Shown here piece by piece: positions 7,314-64,000 of a stretch of DNA of 64,000 bases. Source of the stretch: a virus; the IMG/VR virus record IMGVR_UViG_3300042446_001683; one strand, given 5' to 3'. Below the pieces are notes generated by a model, which worked only from the letters and a program-made list of their open reading frames with translations, searched no databases and was not told where the DNA came from. Numbering within the stretch: the stretch's first letter is position 1; each line of letters begins with the position of its first letter. The position numbers and the translations under genes were made by a program.

Positions 7314-8120
7314 ATGAAAATAAAAGTCTCACATGAAGTACCATTAGCAGTACTAAACGTCTCACAAACATTCAATGATTACGATTATTGTTTGCCTCAC
7401 TTACTAGATAGTGAGTATGAATATTTTAAGTATTTTGACCAAGCAAAGAAAGATGGTCGTTACATTATCATGGATAATAGTTTACATGAACTAGGACATG
7501 CTTATGATACTGAACGTCTATTACATTGGGTTAATTACTTTGAACCAAATGAATTTATTGTACCTGATGTATGGCAAGATATGCAAGCATCTATTGATAA
7601 TGCTGCAGAATGGGCTAAAATTAAGTTACCTTACTATACTACTAAAGTAGCGGTTGTTCAAGCAACTAATATTGAAGAAGCAGCTGAATGTTATTTAAAA
7701 TATAAATCATTAGGTTATAAGAAAATAGCATTTTCATATGGTGCCGGGTATTATAAAGAGCATTTTACTCATATATTACCAGCAATTTCTACTGCAATGG
7801 GTCGAGTAAATGTTATAGGTAAGTTGTATAATAGCGATGTTATTCAATCTACTGATAGAGTTCACTTACTTGGATGTGCTGCTCCTCAAGAGTTTTTATT
7901 CCACCAGAATTACCCATTCATTGAAAGTATAGATACTTCAAATCCAATTATGGCTGCGATGGAAGATAAAATGTATAAAGAACATGGTTTGGATGAGAAA
8001 CCAATTACTAAAATTGACCATGTTATGAATCGTGCCTCTGAAGATATTAACTGGTATGCTTTACATTACAATGTAAATAAATTTAGAAAAATTAACCGTT
8101 TAGATAAAATTATAAAATAA
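7314..8120 (+). CDS. Divergent TGT-fold protein, putative DpdA-like 7-deazaguanine DNA transglycosylase
   Basis: IIMDNS, IVPDV, VHLLG and SIDTS resemble TGT/DpdA barrel motifs; heads the que cluster. Confidence 0.5.
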   Translation: MKIKVSHEVPLAVLNVSQTFNDYDYCLPHLLDSEYEYFKYFDQAKKDGRYIIMDNSLHELGHAYDTERLLHWVNYFEPNEFIVPDVWQDMQASIDNAAEWAKIKLPYYTTKVAVVQATNIEEAAECYLKYKSLGYKKIAFSYGAGYYKEHFTHILPAISTAMGRVNVIGKLYNSDVIQSTDRVHLLGCAAPQEFLFHQNYPFIESIDTSNPIMAAMEDKMYKEHGLDEKPITKIDHVMNRASEDINWYALHYNVNKFRKINRLDKIIK

Positions 8121-8125
8121 GAGTT

Positions 8126-8278
8126 ATGGAAGATGTATGGCATGGGTTAGTAGCCCCTACACAAGGAAATTTGTATGAACAAGAATGGAATGATGCTATA
8201 AAAAAGCTAAAGAAAGGTCGTCTTAGCTTGTCAAACGAGGATACAGATATTATATTACAAATAGCAAATAAATTATGA
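8126..8278 (+). CDS. Small hypothetical protein (50 aa, not in ORF track)
   Basis: MEDVWHGLVAP...; ATGA overlap with queC. Confidence 0.5.
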   Translation: MEDVWHGLVAPTQGNLYEQEWNDAIKKLKKGRLSLSNEDTDIILQIANKL

Positions 8279-9123
8279 AGAAACAAGCAGTATTATCATT
8301 AAGTGGAGGAATGGATAGTTCTACACTATTGCTTCATCTCCTCGCCAATGGCTATGAAGTTACAGCATTATCATTTGATTATGGACAAAAACATAATATA
8401 GAATTAGAGCGCGCTAAAGATTTAGTTAAATACATTAATGGATATTGTATTTTAGATGAAGAGTCTAAAACAGCAGAATACCCATATTATATAAAACATC
8501 AAATAATCAAACTAGATGGCCTATCTGAACTATTAAACTCAGCATTAGTAACTGGAGGTGAAGAAGTACCTGAAGGACACTATGCTGAAGAGAATATGAA
8601 AGCAACAGTAGTTCCTAATCGTAATAAGATTTTTAGTTCTATTATTCAAGCAGTTGCATTATCAATTGCTGAACAAAAAGATACTGAATGCGCTATTGCA
8701 ATGGGAATACATGCAGGTGATCATGCTATTTATCCTGATTGTCGTCAAGAATTTAGAGATGCTGATTTTGAAGCATTTAAGATGGGTAATTGGGGTGCTG
8801 AAAAAGTATATCATTATACACCTTATTTACATACTGATAAGTTTGGTATTTTACAAGATGGTAATTCATGTGTTGAATGCTTAGGCTTAGACTTTAATGA
8901 AGTATACAAACGTACAAACACATCATACAAACCAATTTATTACTTTTTCAGCTGTTACAGTGATTACAAATCAGCATCATCAGTAGAACGAGTTGAAGCA
9001 TTTATGAAACTTGGAAAACCAGACCCAGTTGAATATGCTGATGAGACAGGTCCTGTAAGTTGGGAAACAGTAGTAGAACATGTAGAAACAATTTTAAATA
9101 ATCACAATAATGCCAACATCTAA
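8275..9123 (+). CDS. queC: 7-cyano-7-deazaguanine synthase
   Basis: SGGMDS PP-loop, FDYGQKH, VPNRN, YPDCR. Confidence 0.92.
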   Translation: MKKQAVLSLSGGMDSSTLLLHLLANGYEVTALSFDYGQKHNIELERAKDLVKYINGYCILDEESKTAEYPYYIKHQIIKLDGLSELLNSALVTGGEEVPEGHYAEENMKATVVPNRNKIFSSIIQAVALSIAEQKDTECAIAMGIHAGDHAIYPDCRQEFRDADFEAFKMGNWGAEKVYHYTPYLHTDKFGILQDGNSCVECLGLDFNEVYKRTNTSYKPIYYFFSCYSDYKSASSVERVEAFMKLGKPDPVEYADETGPVSWETVVEHVETILNNHNNANI

Positions 9124-9274
9124 AAAACGAGGTGGGAAGAAAGCCCATAACAAGCGAGTTACAAAACGTAATGAAACAACCGCTAAAAATAGATTAATCA
9201 TGGAACGTAAGTTTATGGCTATGTTAAAAGAGCAAATCCAACGACAAAACCCAGAAACAGAAGATAATGCTTAA
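9110..9274 (+). CDS. Small basic protein (54 aa, not in ORF track)
   Basis: MPTSKKRGGKKAHNKRV...; fills the gap after queC. Confidence 0.55.
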   Translation: MPTSKKRGGKKAHNKRVTKRNETTAKNRLIMERKFMAMLKEQIQRQNPETEDNA

Positions 9275-9278
9275 ATCT

Positions 9279-9434
9279 ATGAAATACCCAGATCCTAAAA
9301 AACATCAACAAATTAGTTTCGCTAAATCATTTTTACGATTAGCAGGATATGTATTATTATTTATTAACTTACCTATAGCTGCTAGTGTATTAATAGCTAG
9401 TGAAATATTAGGTATAATCGAAGAATTAGTATGA
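9279..9434 (+). CDS. Small membrane protein (51 aa, not in ORF track)
   Basis: MKYPDPKKHQQISFAKSFLRLAGYVLLF...EILGIIEELV; hydrophobic; ATGA overlap with next gene. Confidence 0.6.
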   Translation: MKYPDPKKHQQISFAKSFLRLAGYVLLFINLPIAASVLIASEILGIIEELV

Positions 9435-9682
9435 AAGAATTATTTTACTACACAGCAAATTGGTGTAATCCATGCCAAACCTTAGGCCCAATTATGGATG
9501 AAATTGCAAGACAAATCCCAGTCCGTAAACAAAATATTGATTACACTGATCCATCATTATTAGAGGCTGCTAATGTACGAAATGTACCTACAGTTATCCT
9601 AGTAGAAAATGGACAAGAACTAAAACGTTTTACAGGAGTAAAATCACACTCACAAATTATAACTTGGTTAAATGAAGGATAA
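9431..9682 (+). CDS. Thioredoxin
   Basis: WCNPC and NVPT (cis-Pro) motifs. Confidence 0.9.
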   Translation: MKELFYYTANWCNPCQTLGPIMDEIARQIPVRKQNIDYTDPSLLEAANVRNVPTVILVENGQELKRFTGVKSHSQIITWLNEG

Positions 9683-9683
9683 T

Positions 9684-10154
9684 ATGAAAACAAAATTCCA
9701 ATCAACAAAAATATTTGATGGGTTTAGTACTGTATTTCGTCAATGGAGAGCAGATGGAACACACTGTCAATTTCTACATGGTTATGGTATTTCATTTAAA
9801 ATTACATTTGAAGGTGAATTAGATGAGAGAAATTGGGTATGGGACTTTGGTGGTATGAAAAGAGCTAAAGGTACTATTGATGGTATGAATCCTAAAGCAT
9901 GGATGGATCATATGTTTGATCATACTGTAATTATGGCTGAAGATGACCCTTATTTAGAATTATTTGAAGACATGGATAAAAATAAACTTATCCAATTAAG
10001 AGTAATACCAGCTACAGGAGCAGAACAGTTTGCTAAATACATTTACGATAAAGTAAATAAATTTGTATTAGAAGAAACAAATAATAGAGTACGTGTTGTT
10101 CAAGTAGAATTCAAAGAGCATAATAAAAACTCAGCTATCTATGGAGAAATATAA
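9684..10154 (+). CDS. queD: 6-carboxy-5,6,7,8-tetrahydropterin synthase
   Basis: HCQFLHGY, WVWDFG, FDH, TGAE; alternative start at 9672. Confidence 0.88.
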   Translation: MKTKFQSTKIFDGFSTVFRQWRADGTHCQFLHGYGISFKITFEGELDERNWVWDFGGMKRAKGTIDGMNPKAWMDHMFDHTVIMAEDDPYLELFEDMDKNKLIQLRVIPATGAEQFAKYIYDKVNKFVLEETNNRVRVVQVEFKEHNKNSAIYGEI

Positions 10155-10662
10155 TATGGAAACTCCGTATTTAATAAAACAACCTATTTTTAAAGATAAT
10201 AGAGGATTATTTACCCCAATTGAATTAAATGATAATTGGACTCAATCTAATGTTATTGTTAATAATAGTATTTATACTTTTAGAGGAATGCATCTACAAT
10301 CTTCTCCTAAACAACAAAGTAAATTATTATTTGTAATCCAAGGTAGGATAGTAGATATAATTATTGACCTTAGAAAAGATAGTGAGACTTATAAAAAAGT
10401 AGATTCATTTGTTCTAGAAGAAGGAGATGGATTATATGTTCCTAAAGGATATGCTCATGGGTTTTTAACTTTAACTCCTAATTCTATAGTTAATTATTTA
10501 GTAGATGAAGAATACTCACCTAAAAATGAAATAAATATATTATGGTCCTCAATACCAGAAGTTAAGTCTATTATAGATAGATTTTGCTTCAATAATATAG
10601 ATAATGATGTTGTTTTTAGTGATAAAGATAAACAAGGAATCAATTTAAACGAAATATTATGA
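10141..10662 (+). CDS. rfbC: dTDP-4-dehydrorhamnose 3,5-epimerase-like cupin
   Basis: FKDNRGLF, RGMHLQ, DLRKDS, VPKGYAHGF. Confidence 0.85.
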   Translation: MEKYNMETPYLIKQPIFKDNRGLFTPIELNDNWTQSNVIVNNSIYTFRGMHLQSSPKQQSKLLFVIQGRIVDIIIDLRKDSETYKKVDSFVLEEGDGLYVPKGYAHGFLTLTPNSIVNYLVDEEYSPKNEINILWSSIPEVKSIIDRFCFNNIDNDVVFSDKDKQGINLNEIL

Positions 10663-11441
10663 AACCAGGAAGAATAGAAGATTATAATAAAAAATTACCT
10701 ATTGTAGAGTTATACACAGCTGTACAATCTGAAGGTAGTAGAGCTGGGATGCCTACAGTAGTTATTAGAACTACAGGATGTACTCACAGATGTTGGTTTG
10801 GAGATGGTGGATGGTGTGATAGTTGGTATACAAGTATTCATCCTGAAAAAGGAAAATATACGTTTAACGATATTATTGCTATTTATGACAATAACCCATT
10901 CATTAGAGAAATGATGCTAACAGGTGGTTCACCTACAATGCATCCTGACTTAGTAAATGAATTAACCCATTTAGCAGAAAAACGTGGCCTATTTATCACA
11001 ATTGAAACAGAAGGTTCTCATTTCATTGAAACTGACTACCCTATTGGTCTTATATCTCTTAGTCCTAAGTTTAGTAACAGCGTTCCTGCAATTGGGACTA
11101 TTACTCCGCAAGGTAAAGTTGCTGACCAAAAAATGGTGGACCAACATAACAAATTTCGTCTCGATAAAGAAGCGATAAAAAAGACATTAGAATACCATCA
11201 TGACTATCATTTCAAACCTGTTTGTAATCCTATTGAAATGTCTGAAGCATGGACTGAGATTGAAGCGTTTAGAGTTGAAATGGATATTCCAAAACGTAAG
11301 ACTTGGTTAATGCCTCCTGGTGATACAAGAGATGAATTAATTCGAGTATATCCTATGGTGATGGACTTTTGTAGAGATAATGGTTATAATTTTACAGGTA
11401 GAGAACATATTATAGCATTTGACACTAAAAGAGAAGTATAA
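10659..11441 (+). CDS. queE: 7-carboxy-7-deazaguanine synthase (radical SAM)
   Basis: QSEG, RTTGCTHRC...WCDS, LTGGSP, IETEG, SLSPK. Confidence 0.88.
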   Translation: MKPGRIEDYNKKLPIVELYTAVQSEGSRAGMPTVVIRTTGCTHRCWFGDGGWCDSWYTSIHPEKGKYTFNDIIAIYDNNPFIREMMLTGGSPTMHPDLVNELTHLAEKRGLFITIETEGSHFIETDYPIGLISLSPKFSNSVPAIGTITPQGKVADQKMVDQHNKFRLDKEAIKKTLEYHHDYHFKPVCNPIEMSEAWTEIEAFRVEMDIPKRKTWLMPPGDTRDELIRVYPMVMDFCRDNGYNFTGREHIIAFDTKREV

Positions 11442-11716
11442 TGGATAAAAAATTATTAACTGAAGCATTAAAAACAAAAAATACTGTTACATTCTTCTAC
11501 GCTGATTGGTGTGGAGGATGTAAAGTAGCTAATCCTATGGTTCAAGAAATCGCTGAAAAACTTGGATTTGAAATTATTAATATTAATGAAAATGAGGAAT
11601 TAGAAACAGCGTTTGCTATAGATTATTACCCTCACGTAATATTATCCAACAAAGGAAAAATTAAACATTACCCAGGGTTACATTCAATAAAAGAGTTACA
11701 TGAAAGTATTATTTGA
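11441..11716 (+). CDS. Thioredoxin-like protein
   Basis: FYADWCGGC, YYP. Confidence 0.85.
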   Translation: MDKKLLTEALKTKNTVTFFYADWCGGCKVANPMVQEIAEKLGFEIININENEELETAFAIDYYPHVILSNKGKIKHYPGLHSIKELHESII

Positions 11717-12209
11717 AAATGAAGTCATCGAGGCAAGAATTGATTTCTTAGCTACACAAATTTTAAATCGCCATAAATCAGAAAAAATTCCTATTGTTTT
11801 AGTATGTGTACTAAATGGTGGATTTGTTTTCTATTCTAAACTAGCTGAAAAATTATCTTCACTAGACCCAGAATGTGATTTTGTAAAAGTAAGGTCATAT
11901 GAAGGTAGAGAACGAGGCGATTTAAATATGATACTAGACAAATCAGTAGATGTCACTAATAAACATGTTTATATTGTAGATGACATCTACGACTCAGGAA
12001 TAACAATGAATGCATTAGCAAATCATTTTTATCAATTTGACCCAGCAAGCGTCCAAATAGTTACTCTGATTAAGCGTTACATCAATGAAGTAAATATACC
12101 TGTAGGTTCACTTTATGGATTTGAAATTACAGATGAATGGGTTGTTGGATTTGGAATGGATGATGATTTAGGTAAAAAGAGAAGTTTGCCATATATTTTG
12201 GCTATCTAG
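11700..12209 (+). CDS. hpt: Hypoxanthine/guanine phosphoribosyltransferase-like
   Basis: VLNGG, RSY loop, PRPP motif VYIVDDIYDSGIT, VVGFGMD. Confidence 0.88.
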   Translation: MKVLFENEVIEARIDFLATQILNRHKSEKIPIVLVCVLNGGFVFYSKLAEKLSSLDPECDFVKVRSYEGRERGDLNMILDKSVDVTNKHVYIVDDIYDSGITMNALANHFYQFDPASVQIVTLIKRYINEVNIPVGSLYGFEITDEWVVGFGMDDDLGKKRSLPYILAI

Positions 12210-12228
12210 AAATAAATTAATATATTAG
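12196..12228 (+). promoter_or_regulatory. Bacteroidota-type promoter for folE-mazG-polB
   Basis: tttggc-N-tatattag with conserved spacing. Confidence 0.6.
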
Positions 12229-12233
12229 GTTAT

Positions 12234-12929
12234 ATGGAAAATAATAGAAGAAAATTTCACAACGATATTGAGTGTGTGAAGACAGGTTTAGCAAATGGTG
12301 CTGCCGCAGATCGTCCATTAACGGATGATGAAAAACAATCAATGATTGAAGAAGCCACAGTACATTTTGGTAATTTCTTATCAGCATTAAAATGTGACTG
12401 GCAAAATGATCCTAACTCAGCAGATACACCTCGCCGTGTAGCTAAAGCATATGTTAATGATTTATGGGCTGGTCGTTATAATGGATTTACTGACATTACT
12501 TCATTCCCATCAGATGGTTATGATGGAGTAATTATTGAACGTAATATCAATTTAACTTCAATGTGTTCACATCATCACCAAACAATTAGAGGTGTAGTTC
12601 ATATTGGTTATATTGCAGGTGCTGAAGGTCGAGTAATCGGTTTATCAAAACTAAATCGCATTGTAGAACATTTTGGTCGTAGAGGAGCTATCCAAGAACA
12701 ATTAACAGCAGCTATTCATCAAGCAGTAAATAAAGTTTGTGAAGAGAACTTAGGTGTTATTGTAACTGTAGTTGCTACTCACAATTGTGTTAGTTGTAGA
12801 GGTATTAAACATCAAGGTGCAGCAATGGTCACTACTAAAGCATCAGGTGTGTTTATGGAAAACGATAATTTAGCACGTAAAGAATTTTTTGATTCACTTA
12901 AAATAAATAATGGTCATGTCTCAATCTAA
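12234..12929 (+). CDS. folE: GTP cyclohydrolase I
   Basis: TPRRVAKAY, SMCSHH, GLSKLNR, IQEQLT, HNCVSCRG. Confidence 0.95.
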   Translation: MENNRRKFHNDIECVKTGLANGAAADRPLTDDEKQSMIEEATVHFGNFLSALKCDWQNDPNSADTPRRVAKAYVNDLWAGRYNGFTDITSFPSDGYDGVIIERNINLTSMCSHHHQTIRGVVHIGYIAGAEGRVIGLSKLNRIVEHFGRRGAIQEQLTAAIHQAVNKVCEENLGVIVTVVATHNCVSCRGIKHQGAAMVTTKASGVFMENDNLARKEFFDSLKINNGHVSI

Positions 12930-13404
12930 AGAAAATTATGTTCCATTTGTTAGCGAGGTAGAGGAATTTAACGCTACAATGGGTAAACCAAATAATTATG
13001 AACCTACTATTCCACCTAAAGATGAGTGGATGTTTGTTTATAATTTTATTCTAGAGGAACTAGAAGAATATAAAGACGCTTGTGAAACAGGAAATGTTGT
13101 AGAAGTATTAGATGCACTTTGTGATATTACTTATGTGTCACTAGGTAATGGAGCTATGCTTCATGGTCTAAAAGATCAAATTTTACCTGCATATGCTGAG
13201 GTTCAAGCTTCAAATATGAGTAAAGTTTGTAAAACAGAAGAGGAAGCTAACTTTACAGTTCGTGTTCGAGAACAAGAACAAGGTGAAAAATGCCACTATG
13301 AAAAACAAGGTGATTATTATATAGTGTATCGTTCTCGAGACCGTAAAGTAATGAAGTCAATAAACTATTTTAGACCGAATCTTAAACAGTTTTTAGATAA
13401 ATAA
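12916..13404 (+). CDS. MazG-like (all-alpha) nucleoside triphosphate pyrophosphohydrolase
   Basis: EELEE...DALCDITY...SNMSK...KVMK. Confidence 0.85.
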   Translation: MSQSKENYVPFVSEVEEFNATMGKPNNYEPTIPPKDEWMFVYNFILEELEEYKDACETGNVVEVLDALCDITYVSLGNGAMLHGLKDQILPAYAEVQASNMSKVCKTEEEANFTVRVREQEQGEKCHYEKQGDYYIVYRSRDRKVMKSINYFRPNLKQFLDK

Positions 13405-26128: not shown

Positions 26129-26144
26129 TATTATATTAGGTTAT

Positions 26145-26780: not shown

Positions 26781-26786
26781 ATAAAA

Positions 26787-30053: not shown

Positions 30054-30056
30054 AAT

Positions 30057-31411: not shown

Positions 31412-31415
31412 GAAT

Positions 31416-32336: not shown

Positions 32337-32337
32337 T

Positions 32338-33219: not shown

Positions 33220-33261
33220 AATATCTTGGAAAATTAAAAAAATAATATTATATTAAATTAT

Positions 33262-33888: not shown

Positions 33889-33893
33889 TTATT

Positions 33894-39929: not shown

Positions 39930-39953
39930 AAAGATATTAAAAATAATAAAATA

Positions 39954-40811
39954 ATGGAAACAACAGCAGTATTATTAAATTGCCGAAATGATGGTTACAA
40001 AGAAGATGAACGTTTTGTAACTTGTATGAATTCAATGATTGAAACATTTGATGAAATATGGTATTGTGACTGGAATTCTCCTTCAGATAAAGGATCACTA
40101 CTTCATCAAAATCTAGATAAAATTCCTCAAATTGGAAAAATTAGACATTTTATAATAGATCCTGAGACAACTAAATTGCTAACAGGTTCTAACCCAAAAA
40201 TAGGAGACTTCTCATACATTATTCCTCAAAATATTCTACTACGTAGATGTACTGCAGACTGGATTGTAAGTTCAGCTATAGACATTATAGCGCCTAATAA
40301 AAAGCATTTTGATGAGTTTTTACCTATGTTAAATAAAAATACATTCTACACAGCGGCTAGAAGAGATATAGAATATTCTGGTCTTGAAGAAATGGGATTT
40401 GAAAATTGGAGAGAATTTAGAGACAAAATGGATATAGAAGTCTCACCTATATACTACCCAGCGAAAGTCACTCCTAACGATAATTGGAGTTTAATTAATT
40501 GTTGTGGTGACTTTCAAATCGCTCATAGAGATGTATGGCATAAAATAAAAGGATTTGAAGAACAAATGGTTTATGCTTGTTACCAAGATACTAATGTACA
40601 GAAAAAAGCAGTATTAAATGGATATAATTTAGAAGCTTATTTAGGTTTACCTTTATATCATTTATCTCATAAAGGTATGGGTAATGATGGAACATCACCA
40701 TCTAAACAACATTATAATGATTCTTGGGATTGGGTTGAATTTTTTATTGAGACCCAAAATGATGAAAATTGGGGATTAGGAGATACTGAAATTGAATTTG
40801 AAATTATCTAG
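39954..40811 (+). CDS. Probable GT-A glycosyltransferase
   Basis: RNDGY, CDWNS, DII, GDFQ, GFEE. Confidence 0.55.
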   Translation: METTAVLLNCRNDGYKEDERFVTCMNSMIETFDEIWYCDWNSPSDKGSLLHQNLDKIPQIGKIRHFIIDPETTKLLTGSNPKIGDFSYIIPQNILLRRCTADWIVSSAIDIIAPNKKHFDEFLPMLNKNTFYTAARRDIEYSGLEEMGFENWREFRDKMDIEVSPIYYPAKVTPNDNWSLINCCGDFQIAHRDVWHKIKGFEEQMVYACYQDTNVQKKAVLNGYNLEAYLGLPLYHLSHKGMGNDGTSPSKQHYNDSWDWVEFFIETQNDENWGLGDTEIEFEII

Positions 40812-40815: not shown

Positions 40816-40846
40816 GTTTGGCTTTTACTTATCTTTTGTTATATTT
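40816..40846 (+). promoter_or_regulatory. Bacteroidota-type promoter
   Basis: gtttggc-N-tatattt. Confidence 0.6.
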
Positions 40847-40861
40847 AGATAAATAAGAGTT

Positions 40862-43351: not shown

Positions 43352-43383
43352 GTTTGGCCTTCGGGCCATTCTTTATTATATTT
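43352..43383 (+). promoter_or_regulatory. Bacteroidota-type promoter with embedded UUCG hairpin
   Basis: gtttggccttcgggccattctttattatattt. Confidence 0.75.
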
Positions 43384-43398
43384 AAACAAATAAAGGTT

Positions 43399-48489: not shown

Positions 48490-48521
48490 GTTTGGCCTTC
48501 GGGCCATTCCTTGTTATATTT
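48490..48521 (+). promoter_or_regulatory. Bacteroidota-type promoter with embedded UUCG hairpin
   Basis: gtttggccttcgggccattccttgttatattt. Confidence 0.75.
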
Positions 48522-48547
48522 AGATATAATAAAAAATAATAAAAGTT

Positions 48548-52740: not shown

Positions 52741-52772
52741 GTTTGGCCTTCGGGCCATTCTTTGTTATATTT
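52741..52772 (+). promoter_or_regulatory. Bacteroidota-type promoter with embedded UUCG hairpin (ends the lysis unit)
   Basis: gtttggccttcgggccattctttgttatattt. Confidence 0.75.
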
Positions 52773-52777
52773 AGATC

Positions 52778-55729: not shown

Positions 55730-55761
55730 GTTTGGCCTCCGGGCCTTTCTTTATTATATTT
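55730..55761 (+). promoter_or_regulatory. Bacteroidota-type promoter with embedded hairpin (TCCG loop)
   Basis: gtttggcctccgggcctttctttattatattt. Confidence 0.7.
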
Positions 55762-55768
55762 AATCATT

Positions 55769-57878: not shown

Positions 57879-58281
57879 GGGGGACAAGTTAGGGTGAACA
57901 GGTAGGAGTATAGGGTAGGGGAAACAAAATGTGATAACGTAGGAGGAACGAGTACGGGAGAAAGGGTAGGGGTATCAAGTAGGGTGAACGAGTAGGGGAA
58001 TCAAGTGTGACAAACGGAGGAACAAGTGTGACTCACATATCCAAATATAAGTATATACAAGAACGGTATGTGACAAACGTAGGGAGAACGGGTTATATGA
58101 AATGGGGAGGGTATTAACCCACCTCGCCATCACAAGCCAAACTTTTTATCGAAAAAGGATATACAAAAATTCCCCACCCCGGGGCAAATAAATGGGGATC
58201 CCCCGCGGGGGAACGGGTAGGGGGAGCAAGTAGGGGGAACCTGTAGGGGAAACACGTAGGGGGATCAAGAGGGGGGAACAA
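57810..58281 (+). repeat. G-rich 13-bp degenerate repeat arrays (consensus about GTAGGGGGAACAA) around an AT-rich/palindromic core
   Basis: Units at 57823, 57875, 57902, 57915, 57939, 57966, 57979, 57992, 58079 and six in exact 13-bp phase from 58204 to 58281. Confidence 0.85.
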
Positions 58282-58337
58282 GAAGGTTTGGCCCCCTGGG
58301 GGAGGGATGTTATATTTAGCTAAATAAATAAGCACAT

Positions 58338-58805
58338 ATGACACTACAAGAGCTAAAAAAAGAGGTTGCAAAGAAGATAATGTTGAAAAAGAATGCGTGG
58401 ACGGAAACGTACGCCAAGGAAGGAGCGCCCACGGATTTTGAAAGACAGACCTACAAGGAGTACGCCGACATAATTGATAGAGAAATCAAGGAGATGATCC
58501 CTGAAAGTGAGTGGCTGACAATTGAGCTAACAGGGTGCGCCAAGGGAGAATTATCTCATTACACCATTGAAGACTCACTCAAAGAGGTATTTAAGCCAAG
58601 AGAAGGAATTTTGTATGACAGCGAGGGAGGACAGTTTTGGGTGTACGTCAAGTCCTCACTGGTGCAGAAGGTGCTTAGGCATATCGACTATCACTTCCCA
58701 GGCCAGATAGACCTACATGTAGGTATAAATAAGTACGGTGACAACCCCTGGTTTCAAAATTGGACCCAAGCAGAGATGTTCTTATCGGCGCAAAAGGAGG
58801 GTTAA
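58338..58805 (+). CDS. Early hypothetical protein (higher GC than neighbours)
   Basis: Own promoter. Confidence 0.75.
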   Translation: MTLQELKKEVAKKIMLKKNAWTETYAKEGAPTDFERQTYKEYADIIDREIKEMIPESEWLTIELTGCAKGELSHYTIEDSLKEVFKPREGILYDSEGGQFWVYVKSSLVQKVLRHIDYHFPGQIDLHVGINKYGDNPWFQNWTQAEMFLSAQKEG

Positions 58806-58877
58806 ACCTCTTCCACACCTTGTTTGGCTTTGTGTGTCATTGATGTTATATTTAGCCATAATTAAAAACACATAAAA

Positions 58878-59087
58878 ATGGATAAATTAAAACTGTTTGT
58901 TGAAGAAAATTTTGAACGATTTTCAAATTTGGAAGAGGATGAGGTATATGAGTTAGATGCTCATTACATAGATGAGGATATTGTTAATTATTTAAAAGAC
59001 AATGCTCAATTTAGCCATAATGGCATTGTAGTTTATTATGTGGGGGAGAGTGATGAGGTGTGGGTTGAGAATATGAATATAGATTGA
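58878..59087 (+). CDS. Early acidic protein
   Basis: Own promoter and 3' hairpin. Confidence 0.75.
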   Translation: MDKLKLFVEENFERFSNLEEDEVYELDAHYIDEDIVNYLKDNAQFSHNGIVVYYVGESDEVWVENMNID

Positions 59088-59175
59088 GGAAGGGGGGGTA
59101 ACACCCCTTTCCCATTTTGTTTGGCCTCCATGTACAGTTTTATTATATTTAGGTATAATTAAAAAATGTAAAAAT

Positions 59176-59514
59176 ATGGAAAAGTTTAAAAAAGTGGTTG
59201 GTGTAAATGATGGGATTGGAAAAGTTATTAATGATTTGATCTTAGGTAATATGGAGACAGATTATAATAATTATGAGTTAGGTGATAGAGTGACTTATAG
59301 TTTTATGTTGGATGATGATTTTGGGTTTTGGGAAGGGATAAATATGAATGAGATTAAGGAGTTTGTAGGTGAAGGTATTTGTTTAGAGGATAAAGTGTTA
59401 AGTGATATTTGGGGGAAGGATATTTGGTATAATGTTAGTATTAAAAATTATATTGAATGTGAGAGTTTATTAGTAGAGTTTTTGGCTGATGAGACTATGT
59501 GTGAGAAGATTTAG
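59176..59514 (+). CDS. Early acidic protein, almost C-free gene
   Basis: Own promoter; 5 C counted in 339 nt. Confidence 0.75.
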   Translation: MEKFKKVVGVNDGIGKVINDLILGNMETDYNNYELGDRVTYSFMLDDDFGFWEGINMNEIKEFVGEGICLEDKVLSDIWGKDIWYNVSIKNYIECESLLVEFLADETMCEKI

Positions 59515-59602
59515 GTAAGAGGGGTTTAACCCCCTCCACCCACTTGTTTGGCCTCGCGAACAATTGATGTTATATTTAAGTATAATTAAAAATTAATAAC
59601 AC

Positions 59603-59806
59603 ATGACAGTACAAGAATTAATCGACCAATTAACAGAGTTAAAAAATGAGGGTTTTGGTGAGACCCAATTAGTATTATCAGTTACCGATCACACAGATTG
59701 GACCTACAATTTTGACTTCCCAGGCTTTGATATTGGGAACGTTTATGATGAGGATGGTGAGTTTGATGATGAGAGTGATTATGGTATTTGTGAGGTGAGT
59801 ATTTAA
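59603..59806 (+). CDS. Early acidic protein
   Basis: MTVQELIDQL; own promoter. Confidence 0.75.
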   Translation: MTVQELIDQLTELKNEGFGETQLVLSVTDHTDWTYNFDFPGFDIGNVYDEDGEFDDESDYGICEVSI

Positions 59807-59880
59807 ACTCCCTCACCACTTTGTTTGGCTTCGCTGGACAGGGATGTTATATTTAGTCATAATTAAAAAACACAAATAAA

Positions 59881-60123
59881 ATGGTAAAATTAAAAAACGG
59901 GGTTACAGGATTTACTTACGATTCATGTTACGGTAATGTACAAGAAATTTTTACTCAACCTTTAACTGAAAAGGAAATTAAGTTAATTGAGAGAGTATTA
60001 AGTGAGGATGATGTATTATTTACTAGTAATGATAGTTTAAGTGATATGTTTGAATTCGATTCTAAAGAGGATTTAGAAAAGGATGTAGAGGGTTTAAATG
60101 ATGTTTTAGAATGGGTCGATTAA
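59881..60123 (+). CDS. Early acidic protein
   Basis: Own promoter. Confidence 0.75.
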   Translation: MVKLKNGVTGFTYDSCYGNVQEIFTQPLTEKEIKLIERVLSEDDVLFTSNDSLSDMFEFDSKEDLEKDVEGLNDVLEWVD

Positions 60124-60192
60124 GTTTGGCCTTGTAATAAAGGGATGTTATATTTAGTCAAATAAAAAAATAATAATTAAAAACAAAAAAGT

Positions 60193-60540
60193 ATGAACAA
60201 GTTAGCAGAATTGTTAGGTTTAAGAGCACAAATTGCAGAGTTAGAAAACGAGATTAACAATGAAAGTATTACTTTCACAAAAGAGGAGTTAATTGAATTT
60301 ACTAAAACAATTAGTAATGCCGTTGCAAATGGTGTGAAGTTTGAGTTGAGTAAAAAAGATAATTTTGATTTTACAAGTGCCTTATACACTAAACGAAATA
60401 GTGATTTAATGGGTGGTTTGGAAGTTAAAGTTAGTAGAGGTAGAGTGTTAAGTGAGGTTGTAGATAGTATTGATTGGGTGTTGGATGATGAGAATGTTGA
60501 GAGTGTAGTTGAGAATGTATTAGAGGGTTTAGGTAAGTAA
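60193..60540 (+). CDS. Early hypothetical protein
   Basis: Own promoter. Confidence 0.75.
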   Translation: MNKLAELLGLRAQIAELENEINNESITFTKEELIEFTKTISNAVANGVKFELSKKDNFDFTSALYTKRNSDLMGGLEVKVSRGRVLSEVVDSIDWVLDDENVESVVENVLEGLGK

Positions 60541-60637
60541 AATTACCTTTAAATGGAGGGGCACAAGAATGTGTCCCTCTGTTTGGCCTTTGGGGAGAGT
60601 GATGTTATATTTAGGTATAATTAAAAAATAATAACAC

Positions 60638-60826
60638 ATGTATCAAGAAATTTACACCTATTTGATCTTTGTAGATCGTAATAACATTTATGATTTTACA
60701 TCTATTAGATGTTTTAAAGATGAGTTAAATAACCATTTAATTAAAGAGGAATTTTTATCACCAGGCGAACATTACTCAGATTTTAGTTGGGTTATATTTG
60801 AGGAGGGTAGAATGATTCAAGGGTAA
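60638..60826 (+). CDS. Early hypothetical protein
   Basis: Own promoter. Confidence 0.7.
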   Translation: MYQEIYTYLIFVDRNNIYDFTSIRCFKDELNNHLIKEEFLSPGEHYSDFSWVIFEEGRMIQG

Positions 60827-60898
60827 CATTTGTTACCTCTTGTTTGGCTCTGCCGAACATGGATGTTATATTTAGGTATAATTAAAAAATAAATACAC

Positions 60899-61132
60899 AT
60901 GGTTAAGATTTTCAACAAAGGTTTAAGTAAAAAAGGTGTTAAAGAAATAACTAAACGCTTTGACATGGAGTTTGAGGTAGGACAAATTATAGGTAACAAA
61001 TCTAAAACAATGGAAAAGTTTGACCCAAACACCACCATGGGTTTTGTATATTATAATACATGCCCAGTCCCATTAAGTTGGTTGCATTATGAGGTAGTAG
61101 AGTATAAAGTAGTTAAAAGAAGTGTTGTGTAA
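60899..61132 (+). CDS. Early hypothetical protein
   Basis: Own promoter. Confidence 0.7.
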   Translation: MVKIFNKGLSKKGVKEITKRFDMEFEVGQIIGNKSKTMEKFDPNTTMGFVYYNTCPVPLSWLHYEVVEYKVVKRSVV

Positions 61133-61188
61133 TGTTTGGCCTTCGGGACAAGGGATGTTATATTTAATTCATAATAAAAAACACACAC

Positions 61189-61992
61189 ATGAAAAATTTA
61201 GTAATGCAAAAGAAAAGAGGTCGCAAGCCAAAAGTTAAAGAAACAGTAGCGTTCGACCCAAAATCAGTTCAAATATTTAAAGGTTCTGAGTTGTCATTTA
61301 ACGAGTCTGTATTTCGCCCAATGTCAACTGGTACATTGATGGATTCGATTTTATCAACAGATAAGGGTTTAATGCCTGCGGTTAATATGATTATTTGCGG
61401 CGGACCAGGTTCAGGTAAGAGTACGGTAGTATTAGATATGTTATCTAAGTTAGCGGCTAGAGGTAAAAAGGTATTGTTTGTGAGCGGTGAGATGGATGAA
61501 ATTGGTCACTTCAAATATTGTAAACGTATGCCTGGTTTTAAGGTTGTACCGACATTATTTTTGAAGAACTATACTGAAACGGTTCGTGAGACAATGGAGT
61601 ATGTGTTCGACCAAGGTTATGATGTGATTGCGATTGATAGTATCGCTGAGGTAATTGAGATGTTTAAAGATACTTACCGTACAACTGAAAGCGCTGCTGA
61701 GTTATGGTTTTTGAACTTACAATCAACAGTTAAGAAAGGTGGTAACAAATTGAAAAAATACACATCGTTCATTAACATTCAACAAGTAACTAAAGCAGGT
61801 GATTTTGCAGGTAGTAACCGCTTAAAACACATGACTGAAGCGATGTGTCATATTGACCGAATTAAAGGTAGTGATAGTAGAAAGATATATTTTAGTAAAA
61901 ACAGAGATTGTGATACTGAGTCGTATATCAAATATAGAATTGGGTTTAGTAAGGTAGAGTATAGTTTGCCTGAAGCGGACGAAGAGGAATAA
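61189..61992 (+). CDS. RadA/Sms-like RecA-fold ATPase (no Zn finger, no Lon-like domain)
   Basis: GGPGSGKST, LFVSGE, IAIDSI, QVTKAGDFAG...KHM, KNR. Confidence 0.75.
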   Translation: MKNLVMQKKRGRKPKVKETVAFDPKSVQIFKGSELSFNESVFRPMSTGTLMDSILSTDKGLMPAVNMIICGGPGSGKSTVVLDMLSKLAARGKKVLFVSGEMDEIGHFKYCKRMPGFKVVPTLFLKNYTETVRETMEYVFDQGYDVIAIDSIAEVIEMFKDTYRTTESAAELWFLNLQSTVKKGGNKLKKYTSFINIQQVTKAGDFAGSNRLKHMTEAMCHIDRIKGSDSRKIYFSKNRDCDTESYIKYRIGFSKVEYSLPEADEEE

Positions 61993-62011
61993 AGTGTGTG
62001 TTTTTTAATTA

Positions 62012-62210
62012 TAGGGGAATCGGGTGCGGAAACGTGCCCATTCTTCGTCTAGGGGTATCCGGTAGGGAGATCCGGACCGGCTAAACGGCCTAGGGGAATC
62101 GGGTGATATATTGCGTTAGGGGTATCGGGTAGGCGGCCTAATGCCCGGTTATGGCCGCAGGATTATCGGGTAGGTGGGTCCGGTAGGAAGATCCGGACAG
62201 GAGTGACAAG
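62012..62210 (+). repeat. Second GC-rich array of 13-bp units (TAGGGGAATCGGG-like) with hairpins
   Basis: taggggaatcggg x2, taggggtatccgg, tagggagatccgg, taggggtatcggg, taggtgggtccgg, taggaagatccgg. Confidence 0.75.
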
Positions 62211-62271
62211 ACAGGTTTGGCTTCTGGGGAACATGATGTTATATTTAATCATAATTAAAAAACATAAACAC

Positions 62272-62499
62272 ATGGCTAAAGTAATTAAAAAAGCAGTGGT
62301 TAAAAAACCAAGAGTAAAACGCTCATTTAAGGTAGGGGAATCAGTTAAATGGTCCACAATTGAATTAATCCGAAATGGTTGTTTCGGGAGAATGGATTGG
62401 GTAGGGGAAATAGTTAAGGTAAGACCCACTACGGTTCATTGTATGGATAAGGATGGAGATATATGGTCAGTGAATAAAAAAGAGGTTTACGCTATGTAA
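62272..62499 (+). CDS. Early basic protein (SH3/KOW-like beta pattern)
   Basis: Start re-assigned after the promoter; FKVGESV. Confidence 0.65.
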   Translation: MAKVIKKAVVKKPRVKRSFKVGESVKWSTIELIRNGCFGRMDWVGEIVKVRPTTVHCMDKDGDIWSVNKKEVYAM

Positions 62500-62559
62500 C
62501 CTCTTGTTTGGCCTAGCGAGACAGGGATGTTATATTCAGGTATAATTAAAAACAGATAT

Positions 62560-62829
62560 ATGAAAAATTTAGTAATTGAACCAGGTAAAGATGCAGAACA
62601 ATCAATTCACGCCCGCTACGGCAAGTTAATTGGAACTATTAAAGGAGTTATCAGTTATCACAATGTGGATGATGCGGTATTTAAGACGTTTATAACGGCC
62701 TTAACCGACGTATTAAACCCAGATAACGCCTTTGACGCACTACAGATTAAACAACTTATAGCCGTGGCTGAGGAGCGAGAGTTTAACGTTTCAGAAGTGG
62801 TAAAGGAAGTGAATCTTATCCACGAATAA
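62560..62829 (+). CDS. Early hypothetical protein
   Basis: Start re-assigned after the promoter. Confidence 0.7.
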   Translation: MKNLVIEPGKDAEQSIHARYGKLIGTIKGVISYHNVDDAVFKTFITALTDVLNPDNAFDALQIKQLIAVAEEREFNVSEVVKEVNLIHE

Positions 62830-62880
62830 GTTTGGCTTAGGAGGATCAGGACGTTATATTTAATCATAAATAAGAAACAT

Positions 62881-62952
62881 ATGAACGAATTTGAAGACAA
62901 TTTAGGAATGTTTATAGATGATGAAGAGTGGGAACGAGAAATGGGTAGATAG
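62881..62952 (+). CDS. 23-aa acidic peptide (not in ORF track)
   Basis: MNEFEDNLGMFIDDEEWEREMGR; fills the space between two consensus promoters. Confidence 0.55.
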   Translation: MNEFEDNLGMFIDDEEWEREMGR

Positions 62953-63002
62953 GTTTGGCTCAGCCAAGTAGGTATGTTATATTTAATCATAAATAAAAAC
63001 AC

Positions 63003-63131
63003 ATGGCTAAAAAGAAACAACTAGAGTATTTTGAGGACAAGTACGGCATCAAAACACTTAAAACACCTATCAGTGAGAACGATAAGGCGTTATTAGAGAA
63101 ATTAAAACAATTAATAAAAACAAATAAATAA
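63003..63131 (+). CDS. 42-aa protein (not in ORF track)
   Basis: Follows a promoter and aaaaacacATG leader. Confidence 0.6.
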   Translation: MAKKKQLEYFEDKYGIKTLKTPISENDKALLEKLKQLIKTNK

Positions 63132-63136
63132 AGGTT

Positions 63137-63298
63137 ATGTCACAAAAAGGAAGACCAGTAGTAGAGGGTAGCGCACGTCAAGCACGTCTAGCGGCCCGCG
63201 CAGCACGAGTTGCAGCAAACGGAGGAACAGTTAAACGTGGACGTCCATCTAAGCCTAAGGCTGAGGTTGATCAAGCGGAAACAACTTCTGAGGCGTAA
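63137..63298 (+). CDS. 53-aa AT-hook-like protein (not in ORF track)
   Basis: KGRP and KRGRP motifs flanking an Ala/Arg helix. Confidence 0.65.
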   Translation: MSQKGRPVVEGSARQARLAARAARVAANGGTVKRGRPSKPKAEVDQAETTSEA

Positions 63299-63307
63299 GC
63301 CTCAAAT

Positions 63308-63396
63308 GGCCGGATGGTGAAACAGGTAGACACGCAGGACTTAAAATCCTGTTGCCCGAAACGGCAGTGTGGGTTCGATTCCCACTCCGGCTACCA
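63308..63396 (+). tRNA. tRNA-Leu(TAA)
   Basis: Acceptor GGCCGGA/TCCGGCT, anticodon arm CAGGA-CTTAAAA-TCCTG, long variable arm, GTTCGATT T-loop, encoded CCA. Confidence 0.95.
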
Positions 63397-63563
63397 ATGC
63401 CAGTAGTTGATTATGAGACCAAAGGATAGATTATGAGACATTTAATCTGGTAACAATGAGGAAGGCCCTTAGGCAAGGCTATATCAACTGGAACGTATGC
63501 CAGTTAGATGAATAACCCACTTACTCATGGGATTCGAACGCGAAGCAAAGCGCCCCAACAATG

Positions 63564-63602
63564 GAGACCTAGGCCTGATCAGCTTAGGTCTTTCCCTTTC
63601 TT
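63564..63602 (+). terminator. Intrinsic terminator after the tRNA transcript
   Basis: gagacctaggc-ctgatca-gcttaggtctt followed by a pyrimidine tract. Confidence 0.6.
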
Positions 63603-63669
63603 AAGGATAGCTTGCTCTAACACTAGTACTATCGTATATTGGGATATAAATAAATAATTAATTAAAGTT

Positions 63670-63879
63670 ATGCGTAAATTAAATCGTACAGCAAAATTGG
63701 CGTTCTACAATGCACGTCAAAGACAAGGTGACACCGCTCGCCTAGCAGAAGCAACTGGTTATTCTACCAGTCATGTTTCAAACATCATTAACGGTAACCG
63801 TTCGGTGAACCAAGACGTAGCGAACGCTATGTACAATATGTCTCGTCGTCGTATGAAGACTATCGAGCTAGTGGGTTAA
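63670..63879 (+). CDS. Cro/XRE-like HTH DNA-binding protein
   Basis: TARLAEATGYSTSHVSNIING. Confidence 0.8.
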   Translation: MRKLNRTAKLAFYNARQRQGDTARLAEATGYSTSHVSNIINGNRSVNQDVANAMYNMSRRRMKTIELVG

Positions 63880-63909
63880 TACCCAGCCATGTGTGTGTTT
63901 TTACAAGTA

Positions 63910-63935
63910 GGGGCCCAAAGGGGCCCCATCTTGTT
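63910..63935 (+). terminator. Hairpin terminator after the HTH gene
   Basis: ggggccc-aaag-gggcccc followed by atcttgtt. Confidence 0.6.
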
Positions 63936-64000
63936 GTGTACCATTGTTTGGCTTTGTGGGTAATATTTATTATATTTAGGTATAATTAAAAATATAATAT

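Follow-up and report, generated by a model that had tools for sequence, protein, structure and literature searches.

Cytosine-free early genes and their predicted transcription units in a large Flavobacterium-type phage and its relatives

The window analysed here, a stretch of 64,000 nucleotides from the virus record IMGVR_UViG_3300042446_001683, comes from a large phage of the Flavobacterium type, whose DNA polymerase PolB is just 27-33% identical to those of T4-type phages. No near-identical DNA was found in the phage collection, and some relatives, one of them cultured (immuto, in full vB_FspM_immuto_2-6A), share the trait described below. We compared the window with the loci L001/L007, L002/L008, L003 and L010, and with a complete relative of 160.8 kb (G001). 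From 58287 to 63998, the + strand carries an array of cassettes, each made of a promoter, a mini-gene and a hairpin, which resembles the PeSL (promoter-early stem-loop) cassettes. The window contains 20 promoter-like sites, hairpins lie downstream of the genes, and the core promoter motif occurs in 7 exact copies against 0 expected by chance. Judged from these motifs, the early open reading frames are probably bracketed by a conserved promoter and a stem-loop terminator. The cassettes are shared, missing or reordered among the window, L001/L007, L002/L008, L003 and L010, as in a hyperplastic region whose close relatives swap genes at cassette borders. The promoter layout is of the Bacteroidota type (TTTG, about 20 nt, then a TAnnTTTG-like box), and no conserved -35 element was seen 17 nt upstream of a TATAAT-like stretch. 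In the complete relative (160.8 kb), the array occupies about 56-73 kb, and in immuto about 66-77 kb; these mid-record positions give no support to the idea that the array is the first-injected end of the genome.

Cytosine (C) accounts for 12.7% of the + strand of the window. The longest C-free run on this strand measures 191 nt (59295-59485), and further runs of 151 nt (60395-60545), 105 nt (59136-59240), 77 nt (59025-59101) and 67 nt (59741-59807) lie in the same array. An earlier note on this DNA had listed the runs of 191, 151, 77 and 67 nt, and each is found exactly where it was placed. The remark that nothing comparable exists in the rest of the window also holds, the longest other C-free run being 76 nt; no run without G, A or T exceeds 71 nt in the window. 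In the complete 160.8-kb relative, only 2 C-free runs of at least 128 nt occur, each in an early gene and each on the coding strand, and the same scan returned no G-free runs.

The 191-nt run and part of the 105-nt run belong to a gene at 59176..59514 on the + strand, which encodes an acidic protein of 112 amino acids (pI 4.1) that we call family A. As the note had reported, this gene has 5 C in 339 nt, encodes no Pro, Gln or His, and writes every Ser as AGT (4 of 4). The five C fall in the ATC codon of Ile22 (59241), the ACA codon of Thr28 (59258), the ACT codons of Thr40 (59294) and Thr107 (59495), and the GCT codon of Ala104 (59486). All 23 homologues of family A are unnamed, and the protein matches no Pfam or PHROG family. 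Its predicted fold is alpha/beta at a pLDDT of 70; with a model of only that confidence, Foldseek found no match in the PDB at E <= 0.001, and the best VIA-align scores (Z up to 4.1, mostly winged-helix domains) are below the meaningful range. A protein atlas places family A with unnamed viral clusters only (0.87). A tblastn search of isolated phages found no family A relative, and the neighbouring ATPase gave distant matches only.

The putative promoter of this unit (59120..59154, + strand) comprises a -33 element TTTGG at 59120-59124, a T tract, and a -7 box ATTATATTTA at 59142-59151. It is a variant in which TTTT takes the place of the GGATG or TGATG of ordinary early cassettes; the T tract is present in 4 of the 4 independent C-free families in relatives versus about 2 of about 30 ordinary early cassettes. 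With the transcription start predicted from the -7 box, a 5' untranslated leader of 21 nt (59155..59175, + strand) would follow, which has no C and lacks the ACAC of ordinary early leaders. The leader is free of C in 11 of 12 C-free cassettes, and in half of the 12 the last upstream C lies at -1 of the predicted start. At the other end, a predicted terminator hairpin (59519..59536, + strand) carries all its G in the 5' arm and all its C in the 3' arm, so that no C follows the stop codon until the 3' arm opens with one (+16). In every relative, the genes of families A and A' are followed by a terminator of this kind. The C-free zone thus fits the predicted limits of transcription, spanning the predicted start to the terminator loop.

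The simplest explanation would be that nothing special is at work and that the runs follow from an acidic amino acid composition and an AT-rich codon usage. The early proteins are indeed acidic (pI 4.0-4.5), and C-free codons exist for Asp, Glu, Asn, Lys, Gly, Val and Ile. However, synonymous codon sampling with genome-wide usage predicts 20.1 +/- 3.4 C for the gene at 59176-59514, and in 2000 simulations none reached 5 C or a 191-nt run. An exact synonymous test with codon frequencies taken from 90 early-cassette genes predicts 27.1 C against the 5 observed, where 4 is the minimum for this protein (P = 1.5e-11), and the same test applied to the C-free genes of relatives gives P values of 1e-8 to 1e-16. 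Both null models refute an origin in composition and codon bias, the very outcome that the earlier note had named as fatal to its proposal. Moreover, a basic protein and a membrane protein have the same trait, and protein composition cannot account for C-free leaders. We give this explanation practically no credence.

The other early genes of the array depart from expectation to various extents. The gene at 60193..60540 (+ strand), encoding an acidic protein of 115 amino acids, has 21 C where 39.7 are expected (P = 7e-7). All 21 lie in its first 200 nt, whose C content is ordinary, and the last 146 nt are C-free, forming the run 60395-60545. This half-and-half pattern is kept in L003 and L008 and absent from the more distant L010 copy, and a reading of the sequence for an internal promoter of the C-free half revealed no -33/-7 pair. 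The protein has a sub-threshold match to DUF3194; the other small early proteins match no PHROG or Pfam family. Two more genes for acidic proteins, of 69 amino acids (58878..59087, + strand) and 80 amino acids (59881..60123, + strand), have 12 C versus 21.2 expected (P = 2e-3) and 16 versus 27.1 (P = 4e-4); the run 59025-59101 spans the 3' end of the former and the 5' arm of its terminator. The cassette gene at 59603..59806 (+ strand) is ordinary, with 24 C against 26.6 expected and only its last 66 nt C-free, and the 67-nt run at its end is not significant alone. Ordinary early genes are generally C-poorer over their last 60 nt. A wholly C-free family A paralogue lies just past the end of the window.

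The trait is conserved. At seven family A orthologue loci (62-96% amino acid identity), the genes have 2-5 C each, at or near the minimum that the protein allows in 7 of 7. Observed and minimum counts are 5 and 4 for the gene of the window, and 2/2, 4/4 and 5/5 for orthologues; the paralogue at L003:6433-6792 has none and needs none, where 25.9 are expected (P = 1e-14). Two further families behave alike, family B with 2 C for a minimum of 1 and the membrane-protein family C with 0 for 0. At sites that vary among six family A orthologues, C is found in 6 of 97 cases, versus 104/276, 22/59 and 84/182 for three control genes of the same loci. In immuto, gene gp143 has 5 C (minimum 4, expected 24.3, P = 1.9e-10) and a C-free leader, and a profile comparison of gp143 with family A gave no likeness (probability 0.9%). 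The C-free families are mutually unrelated in sequence, one being acidic, one basic and one a two-helix membrane protein, and therefore protein function is not the cause.

C alone is depleted, and G is not raised over neighbouring early genes. G at third codon positions stands at about 20% in C-poor and ordinary early genes alike, which led us to reject G enrichment, R-loop skew or anti-rut skew as the real trait. Third-position C reaches 14.7% in ordinary early genes versus 8.3% in the rest of the genome, and in the C-poor genes T largely takes the place of the lost C (52% vs 32%). A cause in tRNA supply or codon decoding alone was also rejected: one tRNA decodes both NNC and NNT, yet all 34 two-fold pyrimidine-ending codons of the 59176 gene end in T, and the leaders are C-free as well.

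The shift towards T is what would be expected if C were lost by mutation, through deamination on the exposed non-template strand of strongly transcribed genes or in an R-loop. The strand specificity of the effect and its confinement to transcribed DNA agree with such a cause, and the promoter variant common to the C-free genes could be a stronger one. Nevertheless, adjoining cassettes with almost the same promoters hold 10-18% C, and the distribution is bimodal rather than graded. The complete lack of C in 360-427 nt would need C loss hundreds-fold above gain, positions -1 to -3 from the predicted start, which fall within the open-complex bubble, can hold C, and the level of G gives no sign of A-to-G or R-loop-type skew. 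In addition, amino acids that need C have been purged even though the proteins remain 62-96% identical. We consider a mutational cause quite improbable; selection, not mutation, probably maintains the C-free state, and the unit on which it acts would be the transcript.

Rho uses YC dinucleotides to load on RNA rich in C and poor in G, and a C-free message could not be terminated by this factor. The C-free unit has 0.3 YC per 100 nt versus 4.3-7.6 in its neighbours, and where species have runaway transcription, avoidance of Rho is reported to shape how purine-biased their genes are (PMC13323073). The determinants given in that paper are an excess of C over G over more than 150 nt together with T-richness, and by these a drop from about 12% C to zero brings no gain. 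Every early gene already has more G than C, so Rho evasion offers no reason for zero C: C exceeds G in just 6.3% of the 150-nt windows of the early region, and the maximum C-G skew is 0.13. The T content of the C-free gene is raised, to 37.5%, which favours Rho, and with these values a Rho-avoiding composition does not explain why particular genes are C-free. The units are also short and monocistronic with their own intrinsic terminators, and neighbours with near-identical promoters cope with 10-18% C. An escape from Rho is, in our judgement, very improbable.

Selection might instead concern the DNA. A strand without C holds no palindromic site containing G or C and would escape restriction, as in the first-injected regions of T7 or T5. 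This reasoning covers almost every type II site, and the genes, which are early, include several for acidic proteins like Ocr. However, the zone tracks the predicted limits of the transcript rather than a gene or DNA segment, C is retained in the promoter and in the terminator's 3' arm, and shielding 0.3 kb does not save a phage with a 160-kb genome. The array lies mid-record in both the complete relative and immuto, and the modelled family A fold appears unlike known DNA mimics. The DNA is, besides, probably modified at every G already, and that of immuto resists enzymes with G in their site (PMC10516641). Avoidance of DNA sites would thus have only the slimmest chance of being right.

A more serious alternative places the hazard on template G. 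The earlier note had linked the runs to que and dpdA genes, and that link is real, as the window that carries the C-free early genes also carries a 7-deazaguanine cluster (7314..13404, + strand). The cluster includes, all on the + strand, a DpdA3 homologue (7314-8120), QueC (8275-9123), QueD (9672-10154), QueE (10659-11441), a PRTase (11700-12209), FolE (12234-12929) and a MazG-like enzyme (12910-13404). The DpdA3 homologue is 36.6% identical to the DNA guanine transglycosylase of immuto (E = 4e-46) and 34.5% identical to that of the Campylobacter phage CP220, and matches Pfam DUF6610 just under the cut-off. FolE, QueD, QueE and QueC match PF01227, PF01242, PF04055 and PF06508, all over the cut-offs, which provides the preQ0 pathway. 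Phages with DpdA3 are described as replacing guanine completely (PMC10516641): immuto DNA carries 100% fdPreQ1 and CP220 DNA 100% dADG, virion DNA without dG was shown chemically for immuto, phiST and CP220, and immuto DNA resisted restriction enzymes having G in their site. By analogy, DpdA3 together with the preQ0 pathway implies that guanine would be fully replaced in the phage of the window as well.

If every G of the phage is a 7-deazaguanine derivative, a G-free template might let the host RNA polymerase read the incoming DNA, either because modified G slows the polymerase or because attack by a host enzyme leaves blocking lesions at template G. In favour of this, immuto, with its 100% fdPreQ1, has a C-poor early gene, the complete relative also has QueC, and the promoter variant of the C-free genes is G-poorer just upstream of the -7 box, a difference at the DNA level. 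Bulky 7-substituted deazaguanines inhibit bacterial RNA polymerases in vitro (PMC4838386). However, that study saw no prominent shortened transcripts, and its authors infer no elongation block and associate G in the -35 element with the inhibition (PMC4838386). CP220 has no C-free or G-free run of at least 110 nt on either strand, so the C-free trait and DpdA3 do not always go together. All C is modified in T4, and T4 has no G-free run. Ordinary early genes, read off the same incoming DNA, are C-richer than late genes; the DpdA3 link is confounded by common descent, the QueC proteins of the window phage and immuto being 64% identical; and we know of no enzyme that attacks 7-deazaguanine DNA. 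On balance, we regard a hazard at template G as unlikely.

Taking these results together, we put at roughly three in four the probability that C in the transcript, or else G in the strand from which it is copied, is selected against. On the best reading, these units are immune to an agent that strikes wherever the RNA has a C or the template a G; zero C across 360-427 nt fits a one-hit hazard and not a graded preference of composition. The version in which the hazard acts on the RNA is held tentatively, at a little less than even odds. In this version, a small, swappable set of early mini-genes would have the whole transcription unit held C-free by purifying selection on the nucleic acid, from the 5' leader through the coding sequence and on, at the 3' end, to the descending arm of the terminator. 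Every C in the message, which is every G in the copied strand, would cost the phage, steeply enough to shut out Pro, His, Gln, nearly all Thr and Ala, and all synonymous codons containing C. The factor responsible would hit nascent or finished RNA, one cytosine per step, and could be a C-requiring endoribonuclease, a CTP-derived chain terminator or a shortage of CTP. C-free messages would give it no target, and their proteins would be made while other phage messages were cut short. These proteins without known family are presumably accessory factors of host takeover or counter-defence.

Several observations weigh on an RNA-level hazard. C in the RNA and G in the template are perfectly confounded in the sequence, and a comparison of about 60 window proteins with Pfam revealed no C-specific RNase, deaminase or CTP-consuming enzyme. 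The sugar cluster of the window relies on chemistry of the GDP and dTDP types; a CMP-sugar synthetase was not seen. If the first C stalled the polymerase or ended the chain, the CCCC immediately 3' of the stop codon in family B and the two conserved C near the 3' end of family A would be awkward to accommodate. Most prokaryotic viperins yield several ddh-nucleotides and not ddhCTP alone (bioRxiv 2023.09.13.557418), so dropping C would protect only partly, which weakens the ddhCTP version. None of the whole-transcript models explains the 60193 gene, with C in its first 200 nt and none in its last 146 nt. From the three options of the earlier note, both template G and a C hazard on the RNA survive this analysis, and Rho evasion comes out weakest.

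In the limited literature searched, we found no description of cytosine-free or cytosine-less phage genes. We see an even chance that viruses widely use an undescribed strategy of dropping one letter, in which first-responder genes are written in three nucleotides and so lie beyond weapons keyed to the fourth, be it a nuclease needing that letter, a poisoned analogue or an attack on its modified template partner. If this is true, the dropped letter and the protected genes would point straight to an unidentified host defence. A ban on one nucleotide across transcription units, if imposed by selection, would mean a strong nucleotide-specific pressure on early messages or their templates; no known pressure accounts cleanly for it, and identifying the one at work could uncover a new host defence or a new step of phage takeover. 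Immuto and Flavobacterium sp. LMO8 are a cultured pair that makes the strategy testable, and as the DNA chemistry of immuto is known, direct experiments are possible now. The products of C-free genes are natural folded proteins built from 15 amino acids, and one of them, a membrane protein, lacks Ala, Thr and Pro. The trait is recognisable by sequence alone and might serve as a marker of special early genes in uncultured phages.

Known systems share some of these features. Early anti-restriction proteins of the type of T7 Ocr (gene 0.3) are small, very acidic and made first from strong early promoters. Small acidic early proteins appear here too, but not all C-free families are acidic, and no likeness to acidic DNA mimics (Ocr, ArdA), whose elongated fold imitates B-DNA, was seen in sequence (no PHROG or Pfam match) or in fold (model pLDDT 70); to our knowledge, no base-composition rule applies to Ocr. 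A second case concerns MazF: messages lacking ACA, in natural site-free genes as in the engineered single-protein-production system, resist this sequence-specific endoribonuclease through synonymous removal of its target, a single three-letter word. The nuclease-proofing proposed for the C-free genes would be analogous, with the difference that a whole letter is gone and five amino acids are lost. ACA itself is not the avoided word, because it remains at Thr28 (codon 28) of the 59176 gene, and L001 has two ACA.

Phages with DpdA3-type replacement resemble the phage of the window in its DpdA3 homologue and its FolE, QueD, QueE and QueC, and immuto in having a C-poor early gene too; however, C-free genes go unmentioned in the accessible part of PMC10516641, and CP220 has none. 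The Rho-avoiding purine bias (Dierksheide et al. 2026, PMC13323073) is likewise a selection on the sense strand exerted through synonymous codons, which shields nascent RNA from a pyrimidine-reading factor that recognises chiefly C. With about 54% purine, that bias is a matter of degree and affects the whole genome (PMC13323073), whereas the genes described here form a discrete zero-C class among neighbours of normal C content, and T rises in them, in a genome region where all genes already have more G than C. In organisation, the array resembles the PeSL cassettes of the hyperplastic regions of the T4-type phages RB49 and phi1 (Arbiol et al. 2010, PMC2839356). As far as the available text of that paper goes, these are also small genes without assigned function, each between a strong early promoter and a stem-loop terminator, in arrays whose content is shuffled among close relatives, and no base-composition rule is mentioned for them (PMC2839356). 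In the array described here, by contrast, a subset of cassettes is C-free throughout the predicted transcript, and these have their own promoter variant, of the Bacteroidota -33/-7 type and not of the sigma-70 -35/-10 type.

The + strand of the window is poor in cytosine (A 38.2%, T 30.6%, G 18.5%, C 12.7%), and a whole-window scan located C-free runs of 191, 151, 105, 77 and 67 nt within 59025-60545; the longest run outside this region is 76 nt, and no run lacking G, A or T exceeds 71 nt anywhere in the window. Our recount agrees with the coordinates and C counts given for this region in the earlier note. Gene 59176-59514, which is 339 nt long and encodes an acidic protein of 112 aa (family A), contains 5 C, in the codons for Ile22 (ATC), Thr28 (ACA), Thr40 (ACT), Ala104 (GCT) and Thr107 (ACT). 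Pro, His and Gln are absent from its product, and Ser is always encoded by AGT.

The earlier note had asked whether amino-acid composition and codon bias would suffice to produce such runs, and two null models indicate that they do not. When synonymous codons were drawn from the rest of the genome, 20.1 +/- 3.4 C were expected in gene 59176, and in 2000 samples the count never fell to 5 C, nor did any C-free run extend to 191 nt. The second null, an exact test based on codon frequencies in 90 early genes, is stricter because ordinary early genes have higher C3 and G3 (14.7% and 20%) than the remainder of the genome (8.3% and 9.6%); it gave 27.1 C expected and a possible minimum of 4 for the 5 observed (P = 1.5e-11). 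Lesser depletion was detected by this local test in genes 60193 (P = 7e-7), 59881 (P = 4e-4) and 58878 (P = 2e-3). Residues whose every codon contains C make up 3.6% of the gene 59176 product versus 12-27% in most genes. The missing C is mostly replaced by T, C is the sole depleted base, and the G3 of C-free genes equals that of their ordinary early neighbours, a G excess not being peculiar to them. The unusual feature is the loss of C alone and not a G/C skew.

From 58287 to the window end, the DNA is organized as an array with one small gene per cassette, in the order hairpin, -33 TTTGG, -7 box (TTATATTTA), conserved A-rich leader and ATG; cassette content and order vary between relatives. 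In the promoters of C-free genes, a T tract (TTTTA or TTTTG) abuts the -7 box upstream, where the others have GGATG or TGATG; with families counted by eye, the tract is found in 4/4 independent C-free families versus about 2/30 ordinary cassettes. The leaders of C-free genes also lack the ACAC present in most early leaders. The same T tract characterizes a second promoter class, which serves non-early genes (6415-6446, 40817-40847, 43353-43384, 48491-48522, 52742-52773 and 55731-55762). This class shares the -33/-7 core; a TCTTT tract precedes its -7 box and its leader is very short, but the C-free early genes retain the long early leader.

Several other features of this region were recorded. 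An ORF-free gap of 460 nt separates the last upstream gene from the first early promoter and holds G-rich tandem repeats with 13-nt units in two blocks, at 57939-58006 (unit GTAGGGGAATCAA, 3.2 copies) and 58207-58286 (unit GGGGGAACAAGTA, 6.2 copies), which may represent iterons or an array bound by a protein. A tRNA-Leu gene (anticodon UAA, 63308-63396) within the array decodes TTA and TTG, the sole Leu codons of the C-free genes. Gene 63670-63879 (69 aa), unusually rich in C (22%) and 100% identical in the 160-kb relative, lies immediately upstream of a wholly C-free paralogue of gene 59176 that starts just beyond the window end; its product looks like a putative helix-turn-helix protein.

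We then compared the C-free zones with the predicted transcripts, taking as the start the fourth base past the -7 box, as inferred from the Bacteroidota consensus. The predicted leader spans 21-23 nt and lacks C in all but one of the 12 C-free units; C stands at -1 in 6 of the 12. In family A and its paralogue family, C first reappears downstream as the opening base of the 3' arm of the predicted terminator, whose G is confined to the 5' arm and whose C is confined to the 3' arm; one unit in a relative (L003) lacks C over 427 nt, beginning just past the -33 element and ending at the hairpin loop. Because of these C-free leaders and of the boundary at the terminator arm, the C-free zone matches the predicted transcript and not the gene or an arbitrary DNA segment. 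Avoidance of DNA sites does not fit boundaries that track the transcript, nor a genome that is probably fully G-modified already. Mutation alone is unlikely: neighbours with near-identical promoters retain C, positions -1 to -3 within the open-complex region can hold C, G is not elevated, and the C content of genes in the array is bimodal (8-25% in most, 0-1.5% in a few). As a separate observation, C in ordinary early genes of 58300-64000 and of four loci of relatives (L003, L007, L008 and L010) falls to 10.7% in the last 60 nt from 15.1% elsewhere in the gene (Wilcoxon P = 5e-9, n = 74). This drop is less marked among the window's other genes (11.3% versus 13.0%) and may separate C from the terminator's G-rich 5' arm.

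The trait is conserved. Family A orthologues have 2-5 C at all seven loci whose DNA was read, at 62-96% amino-acid identity, and those submitted to the exact test have the minimum C count that their proteins allow. Among six orthologues, 6 of 97 variable sites show a C state, versus 37-46% in three control genes from the same contigs. The paralogue just beyond the window end has 0 C in 360 nt, and the same rule holds in two families without sequence likeness to family A, a basic protein of 76 aa (2 C in 231 nt) and a two-helix membrane protein of 63 aa (0 C in 192 nt). In the complete relative of 160.8 kb, the only C-free runs of at least 128 nt are those on the coding strand of two early genes; no G-free run of at least 128 nt was found. 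In vB_FspM_immuto_2-6A (immuto), a cultured phage of Flavobacterium, the sole C-free run of at least 154 nt falls in gp143 (68330-68686), which encodes an acidic early protein of 118 aa with no detectable relationship to family A; it contains 5 C (minimum 4, expected 24.3, P = 1.9e-10) and has a C-free leader. Since unrelated families, relatives and immuto gp143 share the rule, the trait characterizes a class of transcription units rather than a protein family, and it is probably under active maintenance.

The 23 homologues of family A are all unnamed and of one kind, and Pfam and PHROG gave no family match. An alpha/beta fold is predicted (pLDDT 70), for which structural searches returned no convincing match; the position in a shuffled early array, the sole basis for a functional proposal, would suit an accessory role in host takeover or counter-defence. 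In a metagenomic relative, the gene (protein P0022) is broken after EFVGEGI by an ORF of the GIY-YIG/T5orf172 type (PF10544, PF13455). This break coincides with the start of a stretch of ~100 nt (window about 59349-59446) almost invariant at the nucleotide level in the window and two relatives, which suggests a homing-endonuclease target.

Every called gene of the window is on the + strand. They include a family-B DNA polymerase, both ribonucleotide reductase subunits, a DnaB-like helicase, a clamp-loader-like ATPase, an ATP-dependent ligase, a GroEL-type chaperonin, ClpP and an endolysin, together with a 7-deazaguanine cluster (QueC, QueD, QueE, FolE, a PRTase and a MazG-like enzyme). The PRTase and the MazG-like NTP pyrophosphatase (11700-13404) are placed between queE/folE and polB; the phage combines these nucleotide-level enzymes with a homologue of the post-replicative transglycosylase DpdA3 (7314-8120). 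A long AT-rich cluster for sugar nucleotides and glycosyl transfer (22922-40811) encodes two GT1 glycosyltransferases, a DegT aminotransferase, a GDP-mannose 4,6-dehydratase, two further epimerases/dehydratases, an FkbM methyltransferase and a 2OG-Fe(II) oxygenase; its target may be DNA, the virion or the surface of the host. No close isolated phage was found, the top PolB match being 33% identical; relatives comprise one complete genome in IMG/VR and metagenome contigs. The QueC of immuto is 64% identical to that of the window, and the repeated promoter (TTTGG, a ~20-nt spacer and a TAnnTTTG-like box) is of the Bacteroidota type, in agreement with the Flavobacterium host of immuto; the host is probably of Bacteroidota/Flavobacterium type. 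According to PMC10516641, DpdA3 is the subfamily tied to complete G replacement, and immuto DNA contains fdPreQ1 only, dG being absent.

Sequence alone cannot tell what is selected, because every C of the RNA coincides with a G of the template strand and a C of the non-template strand. We tentatively favour, with a probability of about 0.45, a hazard acting on the RNA at each C, which might be a C-requiring endoribonuclease, a CTP analogue or a CTP shortage, as the earlier note had envisaged. This reading agrees with the all-or-none pattern, with leaders that lack C and with the restriction of C to a base-paired terminator arm, but prokaryotic viperins are mostly promiscuous, family B (the basic protein) has CCCC immediately past its stop codon, and the half-C-free gene 60193 is left unexplained. 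That modified G in the template strand is the hazard, also proposed in that note, seems rather unlikely. The DpdA3 context favours it, and bulky 7-substituted deazaguanines inhibit bacterial polymerases in vitro (PMC4838386); however, no prominent shortened transcripts appeared in that study, whose authors conclude that elongation is not blocked. Ordinary early genes on the same DNA are moreover C-rich, and the two control genomes lack the expected runs: Campylobacter phage CP220, with all G replaced, has no C-free or G-free run of at least 110 nt, and T4, with all C modified, has no G-free run. A host enzyme attacking modified G would rescue the idea, but we know of none. Evasion of Rho, another proposal of the earlier note, does not explain why a few genes should have no C at all. 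In Bacillus subtilis, the measured Rho determinants are a C excess over G across >150 nt and T-richness (PMC13323073); by these, every early gene is already safe (C>G in 6.3% of windows, maximum skew 0.13), and T is higher in the C-free gene. The remaining probability is spread over the other explanations and causes not yet conceived.

A full-text search of a literature collection for cytosine-free or cytosine-less phage genes returned nothing relevant. The nearest published ideas are PeSL cassettes, Rho-driven purine bias and messages purged of nuclease sites, none of which is known to cover a transcript from which one letter is missing altogether; gp143 places such a C-poor gene, under its own name, in a cultured phage of known DNA chemistry. 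As described in PMC2839356, the PeSL cassettes of T4-type phages have the same architecture as the window array, whereas their promoter type differs.
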